Assembly (NCBI GenBank): GCA_002791275.1
Contig: PFWT01000009.1
Location: forward strand, 8,797-72,796
DNA: 64,000 bases
Source of the DNA: Candidatus Uhrbacteria bacterium CG_4_9_14_3_um_filter_41_35
Lineage (GTDB): Bacteria; Patescibacteriota; Patescibacteriia; UBA9934
Direction: 5' to 3'
Shown here: positions 4,838-60,659 of the stretch, one piece after another
Layout: the number at the start of each line of letters is the position of its first letter
Position numbering within the stretch: the stretch's first letter is position 1
Translations under genes and position numbers: made by a program
The notes under the pieces: generated by a model
The model's input: only the letters and a program-made list of their open reading frames with translations
What the model was told of the DNA's origin: nothing
Databases searched by the model: none

Positions 4838-5014
4838 CGTCATTCTGAGGTGAACGTGGATCGTACCGAGGAATCTTATTGCCTCGTCATTCAGAGCCTA
4901 ACGTGAATCACGGCGAAGAATCTCAGTGTTGAATTACAGCGTAAACAAGTTTCTGTTTAGTAAAGAGCGAAGGAGATCCTTCAGCGTAATCTGGCGCTCG
5001 CTTCAGGATGACGG
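4838..5014. repeat. MITE-like composite repeat unit (locus A, copy 1: two head modules + body + tail)
   Basis: Begins CCGTCATTCTGAGGTGAACGTGGA and ends CTTCAGGATGACGG, an imperfect 14-bp terminal inverted repeat with 2 mismatches. Near-identical units recur at 23388-23560 and 36363-36950. Confidence 0.8.
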
Positions 5015-5079
5015 TATGGGTAAAGGGCGACTAATTAAAACAACGAAATAAAAAAAACACATCGCATTATCAAAACCAA

Positions 5080-5133
5080 ACCGTCATTCTGAGGTGAACG
5101 TGAACTACACCGAAGAATCTTAGTGCTGGATTA
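5080..5133. repeat. Partial head module of the same repeat family (locus A, copy 2), abutting the stop of the convergent ATP-grasp gene
   Basis: CCGTCATTCTGAGGTGAACGTGAACTACACCGAAGAATCT matches the head consensus. It is preceded by the conserved linker TATGGGTAAAGGGCGACTAATTAAAACAACG...AAAACCAAA. Confidence 0.7.
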
Positions 5134-6090
5134 CTTAGTCAGGTGTTCTAGTATTTTTTTCAAAACGTTCCTTGTTTTTCCGTAGGTTGGGTTGTAGTGA
5201 ATGAAATAATCTGGCTTGCCGTTAACTTCAAGTAGGTTGAATGTTCCCTTGGTTGGCTTGAGTGAAATATCTTCGCAAATAATGTCGATACCGATCAAAT
5301 TTTTACCAACAGCTTCGGTAGTTCTAACGCAGATTTTTTTTACATCTTCGTGTATTAAATCTGTAATATCTTTCGTTTCGCCACCTTCTGCGATACAGGA
5401 ATTCCCTTTAATATAAATAACCTCACCAGTTTTTGGAACGTTTGACAGCTTATAATTTTGCGAAGCAAGCATTTGTCTTAATAATTTGTCGAACTTTGTT
5501 TTACGTTTCGTTTCTTTTTGCTTGACCCTTATTAAGGTTTTAATATTTAAAATTCCATCACCAATAATATTCGGATGAATCATTTCAAGTCCAGCAATAA
5601 TTTCATTTTCGAGCACTAAGATTCTATATTCTTTACCACTAACCATTTCTTGCGCAACTAAACTGTCAAACCTTTTAATTTTTTGTTTTACAACCGCTAG
5701 CGCATCCTGGGGATTTTTGATATTAAGAACAATTCCAAGACTATTTGAACCTGTGGCGTCCTTAACAATGATCGGATAATGTAGTTTTTTTAGTTTCTTA
5801 AGAGCGGTGACTTTACTAAAACTACTTCTGTAAAAGCTCATTGTCTGTGGGGTTGGTAGATTTGATTTTTTTAAAAGTGTGTAGGTTAAATCCTTACATT
5901 TTGTTGTAGCAACGGTTGAGTAGGCGTTTTTTGGGATAGCAATATGGTACTCAAGAAACAGTTCTTGGTTATTGTACTCAACTAAATGACAGTCTCTTTC
6001 TTTTACAAAATTGGATATTTTTCCACCCGCTTTCGATATTACGCTCTGCATAATATCGAATTTACTATTCGTTGCTATTTTTTTAAACAT
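5131..6090 (-). CDS. ATP-grasp family protein (cyanophycin-synthetase/RimK-like fold), function unknown
   Basis: ATP-grasp-like motifs (KEYRILVLENEIIAG, GIDIICEDIS, LLEVNGKPD). Convergent with the RimK-like gene across the repeat locus. Confidence 0.5.
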   Translation of the reverse strand: MFKKIATNSKFDIMQSVISKAGGKISNFVKERDCHLVEYNNQELFLEYHIAIPKNAYSTVATTKCKDLTYTLLKKSNLPTPQTMSFYRSSFSKVTALKKLKKLHYPIIVKDATGSNSLGIVLNIKNPQDALAVVKQKIKRFDSLVAQEMVSGKEYRILVLENEIIAGLEMIHPNIIGDGILNIKTLIRVKQKETKRKTKFDKLLRQMLASQNYKLSNVPKTGEVIYIKGNSCIAEGGETKDITDLIHEDVKKICVRTTEAVGKNLIGIDIICEDISLKPTKGTFNLLEVNGKPDYFIHYNPTYGKTRNVLKKILEHLTK

Positions 6091-23304: not shown

Positions 23305-23328
23305 ACGACCGACAACGGTCGTTTTTTA
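23305..23328 (+). terminator. Rho-independent terminator
   Basis: acgaccg/cggtcgt stem, acaa loop, 6-T run. Confidence 0.65.
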
Positions 23329-23387
23329 TTTACGTATTAGGTTTTGGTCTTTTAAAATATTGACCAAGTTAGATGACGTACACTAAA

Positions 23388-23560
23388 CCGTTATTCTGAG
23401 CCTAACGTGAATTATGGCGGAAATCTCATCATCTCGTCATTCTGAGCCAAACGTGAATCACGGCGAAGAATCTTATTACTGGATTACTAAGCAAATGTCG
23501 GTTATACACAAAACGAAGGAGATCCTTCAGCATGAATCAGCGCCAACTTCTGGGTGATAA
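23388..23560. repeat. MITE-like composite repeat (locus B: two head modules + degenerate body/tail)
   Basis: CCGTTATTCTGAGCCTAACGTGAAT and CGTCATTCTGAGCCAAACGTGAATCACGGCGAAGAATCT heads, followed by the body segment ...AAGGAGATCCTTCAGC as at loci A and C. Confidence 0.7.
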
Positions 23561-36109: not shown

Positions 36110-36236
36110 ATATTTATTGAAATTGTTATAGCTTAAGTATACACCGATATTAAATTTATGCGAAGAAGATCAACCCCAGGTTAAGCCTGGGGTTATTATT
36201 TGATTTAATTTGATTTGCAAGTTTTTTATTTATTAT

Positions 36237-36287
36237 CTAAGACTGAGTTGCAGATGCGACTTAGTCGCATCTGCAACTCAGTCTTAG
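36237..36287. repeat. 24-bp perfect inverted repeat (palindrome) with 3-nt loop
   Basis: CTAAGACTGAGTTGCAGATGCGAC tta GTCGCATCTGCAACTCAGTCTTAG, with no T-run following. It lies between a 9-bp-stem hairpin (36170-36192) and the repeat cluster. Confidence 0.85.
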
Positions 36288-36362
36288 TTTGTGAGCATTT
36301 TATACTTACAAGGATTGTGTTTTATTTTTTCCAACATCGGACAAATTAGACAACGCACCAAA

Positions 36363-36950
36363 CTGTTATTCAGATCCTGGCGTGAACCACGGCGAAGAAT
36401 CTCATTACTGAATCACCAAATAAATGTCGGTTTAGTAAAGGGCGAAGGAGATCCTTCAGCGTGAATCGGCGCTCGCTTCAGGATGACGGTATGAGTGAGG
36501 GACAACTAATTATAACAACGACATAAAAAATTACATCGCATCATTAAAACCAAATCGTCATTCTGCGCCTAGTGTGAATCACGGCGAAGAATCTCATCAT
36601 CTCCTCATTCAGAGCCTAGCGTTTGGCACTTTGAAGAATCTAACCAAATCGTCATTCTGAGGTGAACGTGGATCACACCGAAGAATCTCATTACTGAATC
36701 ACCAAGCAAATGTCTGTTTAGTAAAGGGCGAAGGAGATCCTTCAGCGTAACCTGGCGCTCGCTTCAGGATGACGGTATGAGTGCGGGTCAAAATAATACA
36801 ATTACACCAAACAAACCAAACCGTCATTCTGAGGTGAACGTGGACCACACCGAAGAATCTCAGTGTTGAATTACAGCGTAAACAAGTCTCGATTCAGCAC
36901 AAACGAAGGAGATCCTTCAGTGTGAATCGTCGTCAGCTTCAGGATGACGG
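36363..36950. repeat. Cluster of three tandem MITE-like composite repeat units with conserved linkers (locus C)
   Basis: Units 36363-36489, 36555-36774 (three head modules) and 36821-36950. Each ends CTTCAGGATGACGG and is followed by a TATGAGTG...AAAACCAAA linker. Unit identity above 85%. Confidence 0.85.
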
Positions 36951-37045
36951 TTTGAGTGAAGGATTACAAATTTCTTTAAAAATTTAACAATCGACCAGTC
37001 AATTAAGTTGCTACAACTGTAAAAAAATGATAGATTCTGTCTATT

Positions 37046-38842
37046 ATGGCGAAGCCGTTACTTGAAGCTAAAAACATTTATAAAAAATACGGTCTCCAGC
37101 TTGTTCTTGACGACCTTTCTTTTCAGGTATCCGAGGGTTCAAAAATTGCTTTGATTGGCCGAAATGGAGCTGGGAAGTCAACACTTCTTAAGATTCTACT
37201 CGGAGATATTGAAATGGATAGGGGTAGTGTTAATATTTTTGAGTGGACGCGGGTTGGGGTTATTCATCAAAATGAGGTACTGCCAAACGATAGATCAACG
37301 CTCACTTATCTTGAAGAGAAAAGTGCGAAGCCATCTTGGGAGGTGAAAAAAATGGGTTCAAAATTTGGTCTGCACGAAGATCATATGTCAAAAGCGCCGG
37401 CTGAACTTTCAGGTGGTTACCAGATGCGAATTAAATTAGTGGTAATGTTTTTAGATGAGCCAAATTTATTATTTCTTGATGAGCCGGTTAACTATTTGGA
37501 TCTACAAACATTACTTCTACTCGAAGCTGTATTAGCTGACTATCGCGGCAGTTTTATCGTGGTAGCTCACGATATGACGTTTTTGCAAAACACTTGTGAT
37601 TCAGTTTTTGAAATTGAAAGAGGGGTGCTTACAACTTATAAGGGCAGAGTGCAGGAATATTTGGACTGGAAGGCGGAGCAAATGGAGTACGCTAAACGGA
37701 TGAATAAAAAACTTTCGAAAGAAATTCAACATAACCAAAAATTCGTGGATAGGTTTAGCGCCAAGGCAAGTTTGGCAAGTAGAGCTCAGAATAAAGCAAA
37801 ACACATTACTAAATTGCGCTCAAAAATAATGAAGATTAATGCAGATTTAGCAACTACGCGAATAAAGATTGCTTCACCACAGGTTCATTCTGGGCTGGCT
37901 ATGCGGACTCAGGATCTGGCAATTGGCTATGGCGAAAATGTTATCGCAAAAAATATTAGTTTTGATATTATGCGCGGTGAAAAAGTTGTGATCGCTGGAG
38001 AGAACGGGCGCGGTAAATCAACATTACTAAAAACTCTTATCCATAAAATTGAGCCAATTGAGGGTTCGGTGAAGTGGTGGAAACATGCGGATATTGGCTA
38101 TTACGACCAGATGACGAGCAGCTCACTTAATGATAGAGATACTGTTATGACTCATCTAACAAGTTGCGCACCAAGTACTACGCCAGCAGAACAGATCTTG
38201 ATGATGGCCGGAAATTTTTTGTTTAAAGGTGATGATCTAGATAAGCGGGTAACGGTTTTATCGGGAGGTGAAAGGGCTCGGCTAGCTTTAGCTGGCGTGT
38301 TGCTTCGGACTCACAATATGCTTATACTTGACGAGCCCACTAACCATATGGATGTGCAAACAGCTGAAGGTTTGGCGCTGGCGCTTAAGTCGTATACCGG
38401 AACAATTATTTTCGTTTCACATGCTCGAACTTTTGTTAGCGCATTGGTTGATCGGATTTTAGAAGTGAGAAATGGTTCTGTTCGCGAGTATAATGGTTCT
38501 TACGATGATTATGTTGAGGATTTAGCGGAGTTAATGGAATCTGAATCAATGCTCGATGATCAACAAGCGGTTAAAGACCGAACTAAACGTCTTGAAAATA
38601 ATGCAGAAAGGCTTGAAAGGAATACACGCTTGCGTGAGTTGAGCCGAAGTATTAAAAAAATAGATCTAAAAATATCTGAACTGGAAAAGGAAAAGAGTAA
38701 GATTTTGAAATTCTTTTTTGATAACCCAACTGACTACGCTCCTGAAAAAGCTCAGCGTTTAGCAGAGCTTGGTGATGAACTCGCTCATCTTGAACAAGAC
38801 TGGCTTAAATTTTCAGAAGATGTTGAAAGACTTAGAAAGTAG
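37046..38842 (+). CDS. ABC-F family ATPase with C-terminal coiled-coil extension
   Basis: Walker A GRNGAGKST / GENGRGKST, signatures LSGGYQMR / LSGGERAR, and about 100 aa of K/E-rich coiled coil at the C-terminus. Confidence 0.85.
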   Translation: MAKPLLEAKNIYKKYGLQLVLDDLSFQVSEGSKIALIGRNGAGKSTLLKILLGDIEMDRGSVNIFEWTRVGVIHQNEVLPNDRSTLTYLEEKSAKPSWEVKKMGSKFGLHEDHMSKAPAELSGGYQMRIKLVVMFLDEPNLLFLDEPVNYLDLQTLLLLEAVLADYRGSFIVVAHDMTFLQNTCDSVFEIERGVLTTYKGRVQEYLDWKAEQMEYAKRMNKKLSKEIQHNQKFVDRFSAKASLASRAQNKAKHITKLRSKIMKINADLATTRIKIASPQVHSGLAMRTQDLAIGYGENVIAKNISFDIMRGEKVVIAGENGRGKSTLLKTLIHKIEPIEGSVKWWKHADIGYYDQMTSSSLNDRDTVMTHLTSCAPSTTPAEQILMMAGNFLFKGDDLDKRVTVLSGGERARLALAGVLLRTHNMLILDEPTNHMDVQTAEGLALALKSYTGTIIFVSHARTFVSALVDRILEVRNGSVREYNGSYDDYVEDLAELMESESMLDDQQAVKDRTKRLENNAERLERNTRLRELSRSIKKIDLKISELEKEKSKILKFFFDNPTDYAPEKAQRLAELGDELAHLEQDWLKFSEDVERLRK

Positions 38843-59622: not shown

Positions 59623-59655
59623 AAAAAATCCTCGAATTAATCGAGGATTTTTTAT
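59623..59655. terminator. Bidirectional rho-independent terminator
   Basis: aatcctcga/tcgaggatt 9-bp stem flanked by A- and T-runs between convergent genes. Confidence 0.65.
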
Positions 59656-60659
59656 AACGCTGTTTTTAAATTTGATTTTTTGTTTTTTGCCATTTTTCGA
59701 AGATCAGCCACTCTGTCACTCTCGTCCATAATCTCCTGACCAACAATTTCCTCCAAAATATCCTCAACTGTAATCACTCCTTCAACATTCTTAAATTCAT
59801 CAATCGCAACAAACATATGATTTCGCGTATTGATAAAGGCATTTAGTACGTCATCGAGTTTACTTTTAGACGAGACAGAATAGACGGTGTTATTCATGAG
59901 CTCGCCAACATGTTTACCAATTATTTCGCGACCAACTAAGTTTTTTATGTATAACAAACCAACTATATTATTTTGTTGTCCGTTATAGACTGGAAATCTG
60001 GAGTGACCAGTTTTTCTTAATTTAATTATTAGGGTAGTTGTAAATTTTTGGTTTTGATCGAGCATCATAGCAACAGAAGCTGGCGTCATAACCTCCTCTA
60101 CACGACGATCAGAAAATGTAAGCGCACCTTTTAAAATTCTTTCTTCATCGGCATCAATATTAGATTCAACCGAGTCTTCGTGTTCCTCGATAAATTCGAT
60201 GAGCTCATGTTTTGAATAAATTGTTGGCATTTCTGAACCTAACATCTTATTAAGTACCCAAGCAATGGGGTAGGTGAGCGGGAAAAGAAGTGCTAAAAAT
60301 ATCCAAACGAGCCAAGTAGTTTGAGCCCCGAATTTCAAAGCGTGCCTTGAAATAACCGCCTGTGGAATAATTTCTCCAAAGAGAAAAATTAAGGCTGTGG
60401 CCACTATACCTGCAACAACGCCGGTTGCGATACTGCCTAAAAAGACAGAAAGAGCAGAATTAACCCCAACGTTGCCGAGCAAGAGAGTTGCGAGCAAGAG
60501 GTTACCGTGTTTACGAATTGGGTAGATTTTAATTGCGTTTTTATCTCCTAGTTTGGCTTTTCGCTTTAATTCGTGAACATCGAGACCCATTAAACCAAGG
60601 GTGAGTCCAGAAAAAAGTGCTGAAAAACCAATGAGGAGAAGCGTTATGACATATTCCAT
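59652..60659 (-). CDS. CNNM/CorC-HlyC family transporter (DUF21 + tandem CBS + CorC_HlyC)
   Basis: N-terminal 4-TM DUF21, a CBS pair and a C-terminal transporter-associated domain (VEGVITVEDILEEIVG). Confidence 0.8.
   Translation of the reverse strand: MEYVITLLLIGFSALFSGLTLGLMGLDVHELKRKAKLGDKNAIKIYPIRKHGNLLLATLLLGNVGVNSALSVFLGSIATGVVAGIVATALIFLFGEIIPQAVISRHALKFGAQTTWLVWIFLALLFPLTYPIAWVLNKMLGSEMPTIYSKHELIEFIEEHEDSVESNIDADEERILKGALTFSDRRVEEVMTPASVAMMLDQNQKFTTTLIIKLRKTGHSRFPVYNGQQNNIVGLLYIKNLVGREIIGKHVGELMNNTVYSVSSKSKLDDVLNAFINTRNHMFVAIDEFKNVEGVITVEDILEEIVGQEIMDESDRVADLRKMAKNKKSNLKTAL

Follow-up and report, generated by a model that had tools for sequence, protein, structure and literature searches.

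A hairpin-repeat array upstream of an ABC-F gene in Candidatus Uhrbacteria is probably a cluster of CGTC-tagged REP elements

What occupies a 0.8-kb gap upstream of the gene for an ABC-F ATPase in a very compact genome? The locus lies in a 64,000-nt stretch of DNA (the window) of contig PFWT01000009.1, from Candidatus Uhrbacteria bacterium CG_4_9_14_3_um_filter_41_35, a member of the Candidate Phyla Radiation (CPR), where a tandem array of hairpin-forming repeat units precedes the ABC-F start codon at position 37046. A first-pass annotation of this DNA had proposed two ways in which the array could bear on the gene, either as a long structured 5' leader of its mRNA or as an insertion into its promoter. 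Our analysis points elsewhere. We hold with good confidence that the array is a cluster of CGTC-tagged repetitive extragenic palindromic (REP) elements, organised as head-to-head (HH) heterodimers with conserved linkers within an intergenic mosaic; the kind of element is known, and the host lineage is new for it. In Di Nocera, De Gregorio and Rocco 2013, BMC Genomics 14:522 (PMC3733652), which describes the CGTC-tagged REP superfamily, the tag is unpaired and is sometimes TGTC or CCTC. As regards the neighbouring gene, we infer that the array plays no specific part in the expression of ABC-F.

Composite units of the array and their other loci

The building block of the array is a module of about 40 nt, in which an unpaired CGTC tag is followed by a stem of A-T, T-A, Y-R, C-G and T-A pairs. 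After these 5 bp come a tandem G.A/A.G mismatch, three to four more pairs and a variable inner loop, and the module closes with a 3-nt CTC tail. A head thus reads CGTC-AT-TCTGA-(inner stem-loop)-GAAGA-AT-CTC, with the general form CGTC-AT-YCTGA...GAAGR-AT-CTC. The tail of a unit is an inverted module, with C/G at the Y/R position and an inner stem of its own, and a complete unit of about 125-145 nt consists, in the window, of the inverted tail, preceded by a conserved spacer hairpin and by a single head or up to three of them. The tag is CGTC in 7 of the 10 heads and 4 of the 5 tails of the window, and the variants are TGTT (36364), CCTC (36603) and CGTT (23389). Two types of head occur, GAGG-TG...CA-CCGAAG and GAGC-C...G-GCGAAG, whose differences are fully compensatory.

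Three such composite units occupy 36364-36949 on the plus strand, at the positions first noted, as sequence reading, a repeat finder and Tandem Repeats Finder (TRF) all indicate; between the array and the ABC-F ATG there are 96 nt, near the gap originally given. Unit A (36364-36488) comprises a type II head (36364-36403) with its tag degenerated to TGTT, a spacer hairpin (36404-36447) and an inverted tail (36448-36488). The middle one, unit B (36556-36774), does carry the triple head ascribed to it, with a period of 47 nt: a type II head at 36556-36596, a degenerate head with a CCTC tag at 36603-36642 and a type I head at 36650-36689, followed by a spacer hairpin and a tail (36734-36774). TRF reports these heads at 36548-36661, with a period of 47 nt, 2.4 copies and a score of 123. 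Unit C (36822-36949) has a type I head (36822-36861), a beta-type spacer hairpin and a tail (36909-36949), and its inverted-repeat extension (CAAACC.../...GGTTTG) reaches approximately 36962. Spacer types are mixed within the array: those of units A and B are alike, and that of unit C is nearer to a copy at 4886.

The linkers between the units, described at first pass as conserved, are indeed so. Linker 1 (36489-36555, plus strand) matches window positions 5014-5080, and linker 2 (36775-36821, plus strand; GTATGAGTGCGGGTCAAAATAATACAATTAC...) recurs with the same sequence beside tails at three related metagenome loci (L145, L156 and L158). A whole composite of head, spacer, tail, linker and head is shared between 4886-5120 and 36365-36594, at 81% identity over 236 nt. 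The 16-mer GAAGGAGATCCTTCAG is present in five exact copies against 0.5 expected, a number that none of 100 shuffles reached, and the module pattern matches eight times in the window against 0.00 expected from shuffles. Moreover, repeated DNA extends further to the left than had been noted, as all of 36168-36962 is found again at other loci. A CRISPR array was considered and rejected, given that the units are inverted-repeat composites and that the linkers are themselves repeated at other loci. On the minus strand, linker 1 holds an extended -10-like motif, TGTTATAAT (36509-36517), and another, TGTTAAATT, lies just to the right of the array (36981-36989). Both point leftwards into the array and, judged from their sequence, could drive antisense transcripts across the units.

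The family is dispersed in the window and in the host population. All three window loci are intergenic. The second (4838-5125, plus strand) contains two heads, a spacer, a tail, a linker and a lone head between convergent genes; the third (23389-23560, plus strand) contains two heads, a spacer and a degenerate tail between co-directional genes, and an intrinsic terminator (23308-23330) sits just upstream of it. Scanning a metagenome collection with a family-specific pattern returned 19 stretches, one of which overlaps the window at 99.9% identity, and the others add at least 14 loci with the same units, in which a unit has from one to four heads in tandem, again with the period of 47 nt. In every complete unit of the window and of these stretches (L144-L162), the order is head or heads, spacer and inverted tail, and the host-family copies are all intergenic. 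The array before ABC-F had been called the largest of its family; this holds within the window, whereas in the family as a whole an array in L153, with ten modules over 656 nt, is longer. The neighbours of at least 16 other loci are unrelated genes, and most often the units follow a terminator or separate two convergent genes. At about 13 of 17 loci, the arrays stand head-first just downstream of terminators of the same direction, an orientation bias that rests partly on reading by eye, automated terminator detection at array flanks being too crude. In L155 (about 1113-1180), one REP dimer directly follows the 3' end of an apparent tRNA gene, recognised by eye, and its terminator, in the same direction, as the window copies do with theirs. 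The RNase P gene in L017, whose extra length was checked for a REP insertion, contained none.

The ABC-F promoter and the left flank of the array

Does the array act on the gene that it precedes? The ABC-F gene (37046-38842, plus strand) encodes a protein of 598 aa with two ABC_tran domains and an ABC_tran_Xtn domain; it neighbours a DUF5671 gene in a genome of 39% G+C. Its nearest protein relatives beyond its own cluster are about 70% identical, and the named ones are labelled as Candidatus Uhrbacteria or Patescibacteria. Between the repeated block and the start codon lie 83 nt of unique promoter-proximal DNA (36963-37045, plus strand), which hold an extended -10 element, TGATAGATT, at 37028-37036, 9 nt before the ATG. 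This element, TGnTAGATT, is at the same distance of 9 nt in the orthologues, and in L135 it takes the form TGATAGTCT and ends 6 nt before the ATG, so that it is present in 6 of 6; the rest of the orthologue upstream sequence has diverged. Among these orthologues, whose proteins are about 64-70% identical to the ABC-F protein of the window, four have upstream regions of 96, 108, 75 and 145 nt and one has 585 nt; a further one, at a locus without DNA, has 50 nt. The repeat was not found upstream of any of the five orthologues with DNA.

A promoter so close to the start codon is no peculiarity of this gene. Of 55 window genes, 9 have TGnTAnnnT at 4-12 nt upstream of the ATG, where the density of the motif predicts about 0.8 (the genes at 5131-6090, 59652-60659 and 37046-38842 are examples), and a Shine-Dalgarno sequence precedes few of the window genes. 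On these sequence grounds, leaderless mRNAs seem to be frequent in this genome. Given this habit and an extended -10 element conserved at 6-9 nt upstream of the start codon, the ABC-F mRNA is predicted to be leaderless or nearly so, starting at approximately 37043-37046, about 95 nt downstream of the array. Since the repeated block stops at about 36962 and the core promoter lies in the unique 83 nt, the array would stand upstream of the predicted start and the core promoter would be intact.

These data bear directly on both proposals of the first-pass annotation. Transcription of the array with ABC-F as a long structured 5' leader, or another form of cis control of the gene, is extremely unlikely in our view. 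Some ABC-F genes of other bacteria have regulatory leaders, and an array that ends 96 nt before the ATG, forms stable sense-strand folds (down to -65 kcal/mol, z -7.6) and has G.U pairs in its spacer hairpins on the sense strand would suit such a role; yet the conserved extended -10 element lies 6-9 nt before the ATG in six orthologues, whose upstream regions are mostly short and in none of which the repeat was seen, and the array lies upstream of that element. The same units stand beside unrelated genes at the 16 or more other loci, searches returned no match to an Rfam leader or riboswitch, the uup motif included, and two same-strand terminator-like hairpins lie upstream of the array. Insertion into the promoter finds no support either, as the core promoter is in the unique 83 nt downstream of the repeated block. 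If the array affects ABC-F, it would at most buffer the gene from upstream transcription or alter local DNA topology.

The left flank of the array is itself part of the mosaic. Similarity to other loci begins at about 36168, and a terminator scan found a terminator-like hairpin, AACCCCAGG-ttaag-CCTGGGGTT with a T-rich run, at 36172-36194 (plus strand), at the left edge of the repeated block; similar hairpins occur in L157 and L158. An (ATTTG)4 microsatellite follows at 36198-36217 (TRF period 5, 4 copies), just upstream of a 51-nt perfect palindrome at 36237-36287, CTAAGACTGAGTTGCAGATGCGACT-T-AGTCGCATCTGCAACTCAGTCTTAG, which has 25-nt arms with 100% complementarity around a 1-nt centre and is followed by TTTGTG. 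At the place of the microsatellite, the left flanks of L151, L157 and L158 have (GATTT)n or (GGTTT)n of varying length. The palindrome is the sole one of its kind in the window. Copies that are 94-98% identical exist at six other metagenome loci (L144, L146, L148/L151, L157, L158), always on the head side of an array. It is a second repeat family beside the REP arrays and may be a strong terminator cassette. From the palindrome to the first head runs a conserved left arm (36288-36363, plus strand), which can be aligned in L146, L151, L155 and window positions 23365-23389 and which holds a degenerate GTGAGCA/TGCTCAC hairpin and a ...ACGCACCAAAC motif that abuts the tag.

Hairpin selection, spread and turnover of the modules

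Which structure does selection keep in these units? We aligned 20 distinct units from the window and the related metagenome loci and compared base pairing across them. The local hairpins of head, spacer and tail are paired in 91.3% of cells, against 32-41% with slid partners. Head pairs 23-39 and 24-38 switch together, being C-G/C-G in 12 units and G-C/U-A in the other 8, and pairs 15-47 and 16-46 are A-U and U-A in all 20, as they are in the tail helix. The spacer hairpin also covaries and has many G.U pairs on the head-first strand. Folding energies are -45 kcal/mol for unit A (z -2.95) and -65.2 kcal/mol for unit C (z -7.64). The inner helix between head and tail is without covariation, pair 38-112 being G-C in 12 units, A-U in 1 and unpaired in 7; because of this, the single long minimum-free-energy hairpin is less well supported than three local hairpins. 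A single long hairpin per unit is possible, yet it appears not to be what selection keeps. A hammerhead or K-turn reading of the CUGA...GAAG core was rejected on inspection, as the helix is continuous around the tandem G.A, there is no 3-nt bulge and the CUGANGA/GAAA core is incomplete.

The module is not confined to this host. Scanning GTDB, with one genome per species, for CGTCATYCTGA-N17-22-GAAGRATCT yielded at least 120 loci, against about 26 chance matches by a rough estimate for the whole collection. The clamp is found in genomes of at least 15 phyla, mostly in intergenic DNA and mostly in tags-outside dimers. Among the matches listed, the record titles name Acidobacteriota, Omnitrophota, Patescibacteria (including Saccharibacteria and Paceibacterota), Bacteroidota, Ignavibacteria, Planctomycetota, Verrucomicrobia, Chloroflexota, Clostridia, Actinomycetes, Legionella and other Proteobacteria, Nitrospinaceae, Oligoflexales, Gastranaerophilales and Binataceae. 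These matches comprise 126 distinct modules, in which the flanks beyond CGTC...CTC are random, including the bases that precede the tag. Of these modules, 122 have a concordant Y/R pair and 84 have C after ATCT, and the inner segment has a mean of 3.1 contiguous pairs against 0.6 in shuffles. In a relaxed scan with 250 modules, 35% lie inside open frames of at least 150 codons, compared with 82% of random windows. Neighbouring modules at the GTDB loci form 57 HH (tags-outside) pairs, 18 TT (tags-inside) pairs and 9 HT (tandem) pairs. In many modules of L011-L130, the inner segments consist of reiterated GCGAA/GCGGA pentamers, as in L046 (CTGAGCGGAGCGGAGCGGAGTCGAAG); this reiteration suggests that the stem-loop grows by short internal duplications.

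A strand asymmetry of mismatches runs through this set. In the 94 cross-phylum modules with clear inner stems, G.A/A.G mismatches number 55 against a single C.T, and G.T mismatches 13 against 5 A.C. As a duplex palindrome gives no such asymmetry, selection would act on the hairpin in its single-stranded form, with the CGTC tag as the start of reading and with DNA or RNA as the strand, and the modules may act as single-stranded hairpins read on that strand.

Were that strand RNA, the units themselves might be RNA elements, that is, small RNAs or 3'-end or stability elements transcribed by read-through or from linker promoters, the DNA repetition being secondary. We consider this unlikely. The asymmetric mismatches accord with it, but they are equally expected of a single-stranded DNA substrate. 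The G.U pairs kept on the head-first strand and the head-first placement after same-direction terminators (about 13 of 17 loci, by eye) also speak for it, as do the extended -10-like motifs at 36509-36517 and 36981-36989; however, no promoter/terminator pair brackets a unit, and the dimer has modules in both orientations, so that any transcript would have half of them in the unfavourable C.U/U.C form. Di Nocera et al. (PMC3733652) also argue for an action of many REPs at the RNA level. A function of the RNA at 3' ends, or an insertion preference near terminators, is possible, because the arrays stand head-first after terminators of the same direction.

A duplex-based origin fares worse. The units could be classical miniature inverted-repeat transposable elements (MITEs), deletion derivatives of an insertion sequence (IS) whose DDE transposase recognises terminal inverted repeats of about 50 nt as duplex. 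Their size of approximately 125-145 nt, their long inverted termini, which continue about 9 nt beyond the CGTC tags, and their dispersal at many loci are MITE-like, but no target-site duplication is visible at unit or array borders, and 210 kb of DNA yielded neither a parent IS nor a transposase. The inner stems of head and tail differ and covary within, not between, modules; the strand-asymmetric G.A mismatches argue against duplex recognition; and in many phyla the clamp is also present in modules that stand alone. With these points we regard a MITE origin as very unlikely. A tblastn search of the 210 kb of host-related DNA gave no IS200/RAYT/Y1-transposase-like match, a weak test on part of the host genome.

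How, then, would CGTC-tagged REP elements reach new loci? By analogy with REP/RAYT, new loci may arise through a trans-acting enzyme on single-stranded DNA, and arrays may lengthen or shorten in place through slippage, or through unequal recombination of near-identical modules, a process for which the data give partial support. When 3140 open frames of the 120 GTDB loci listed were clustered all against all, no recurrent family of linked proteins emerged (maximum 6 loci). The viral collection gave only 8 matches, several of them at contig ends, and this rarity in viral contigs indicates that the module is not phage-borne; in the plasmid collection, a few weak and uninformative matches were seen, in Hymenobacter and Sinorhizobium. 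Rfam searches of the window and 18 loci from other phyla, at gathering and permissive thresholds, returned nothing that covers the modules, and the microRNA-like matches to the 51-nt palindrome in these searches were dismissed as spurious. An Acido-Lenti-1 RNA (RF01687, 39.7 bits) lies at 239-284 of L090, an Acidobacteriaceae locus with three CGTC modules, and the association is probably coincidental. A literature search by sequence strings returned primers only.

The breadth across phyla, the lack of a linked transposase and the G.A-biased asymmetry together lead to a bolder idea, which we put forward tentatively and at low probability. The clamp CGTC-AT-YCTGA...GAAGR-AT-CTC would be one strand-read hairpin across at least 15 phyla, the minimal genomes of CPR bacteria among them, and a near-universal host enzyme with single-stranded nucleic acid as its substrate would make or move it. 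Under this idea, the enzyme would more plausibly be a factor of replication, repair or RNA processing than a transposase encoded by the element. If it is true, a Uhrbacteria genome of about 1 Mb with active-looking arrays would narrow the candidate genes for the mobilisation of CGTC REPs.

Turnover can be followed at the level of the modules. The head module had been supposed to expand and contract, and this is supported by units across the family with one, two, three or four tandem heads at the 47-nt period and by a one-unit difference at another locus. At the ABC-F locus itself, the assemblies showed no difference in unit number, which together with the predicted start downstream of the array speaks largely against the first-pass proposals there: seven full-length and three partial independent assemblies are 100% identical, and the 936-nt intergenic region is the same across these assemblies, which come from different samples. 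Three short-read contigs with the ABC-F gene (L008, L009 and L010) break off within the array, at distances of 802, 527 and 188 nt from the start codon. At another locus, L151 (5464-5855) has exactly one 218-bp unit more than L148 (4592-4765), and the junction falls inside a 100-nt stretch that is identical between both units. This difference could be the product of unequal recombination or of a collapsed assembly. The variation in head number from one to four and the mixture of spacer types in the array show that modules have been reshuffled over time. We further infer that the modules are mobile.

Comparison with known repeat systems

For annotation, our results mean that the 0.8-kb gap in this very compact genome is repeated mosaic DNA, neither a regulatory leader nor an unannotated gene, and that the ABC-F promoter is placed in the last 83 nt. 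The literature searched yielded no description of REP-type repeats in CPR bacteria. Measured against the hosts listed by Di Nocera et al., the CGTC-tagged REP superfamily is extended from five phyla to many more. The asymmetric G.A mismatches, the tandem amplification of heads and the possible one-unit polymorphism bear on how CGTC REPs, for which no transposase is known, arise and spread. Repeats of this kind also break short-read assemblies, which matters for the binning of CPR genomes.

The architecture recalls the REPINs and BIMEs of Pseudomonas and E. coli, in which two inverted REP hairpins and a spacer likewise fold as one long hairpin. Shared, too, are intergenic dispersal, tandem clusters with conserved linkers, and strand-specific imperfect hairpins suited to single-strand recognition. 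In contrast, the tag here is CGTC, and that of the REPIN/RAYT system is GTAG (GTRG).

Other parallels are found in Rickettsia and Neisseria. Rickettsia palindromic elements (RPEs) often lie in frame inside protein genes, whereas the copies described here are all intergenic. The dRS3 element of Neisseria is an integration target for filamentous prophages; its stem and the repeat sequences interleaved with it differ from ours, and its phylum is unrelated. Di Nocera et al. (PMC3733652) assign RPE-4 and RPE-6 to CGTC-4 and CGTC-1, respectively, and identify dRS3 as CGTC-1, most Neisseria copies lying in large mosaic intergenic clusters with other repeat families. With RPE-4 and RPE-6, as presented there, our units share a hairpin-forming length of about 100-150 nt built on CGTC modules. 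With dRS3 and the NIMEs, the likeness is one of organisation: window positions 36168-36962, too, combine CGTC modules and conserved linkers with a microsatellite and another palindrome family into a mosaic.

Several points weigh against the assignment to the CGTC-tagged REP superfamily. Published CGTC families have stems of 8-9 bp and loops of 4-5 nt, with exceptions in other loops noted (PMC3733652); the window stem is interrupted and longer, with 5 bp, then G.A/A.G, then 3-4 bp, and its loop has about 7-11 nt. The unpaired 3-nt tail has the consensus CCA in these families (PMC3733652) and is CTC in the window. Tandem heads are the rule here, whereas tandem (HT) dimers are described as negligible for CGTC REPs (PMC3733652). 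Our units were compared with CGTC-1 to CGTC-4 by the features described for those families. As the search pattern itself prescribed the clamp of the cross-phylum modules, the conservation of the clamp there is in part a circular result. Neither an empty site nor an insertion polymorphism came to light, and the next ABC-F homologue is only 70% identical, too distant for an empty-site comparison. Finally, the ABC-F start is a predicted one, and read-through or additional upstream promoters may exist.

What favours the assignment is the agreement of many traits with the published description of the superfamily. CGTC REPs have stems that open with A-T and T-A (PMC3733652), and the modules share this opening together with the unpaired CGTC tag and its TGTC/CCTC-type variants. 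HH dimers predominate among CGTC REPs and are often heterodimers, with conserved, structured spacers of 20-100 nt (PMC3733652); REP clusters are dimers reiterated with flanking DNA, with no dedicated transposase (PMC3733652). Our units match this description in HH dimers with structured spacers, in clusters of reiterated dimers with flanking DNA and in a multicopy and predominantly intergenic distribution (three window loci and at least 14 further ones). Their tail also has 3 nt, but of another sequence, and no recurrent protein was seen at the 120 GTDB loci listed and no transposase in the 210 kb of host-related DNA. The hosts listed there are Proteobacteria, Chlorobi, Bacteroidetes, Spirochaetes and Thermotogae (PMC3733652); the host here differs in being a CPR bacterium.

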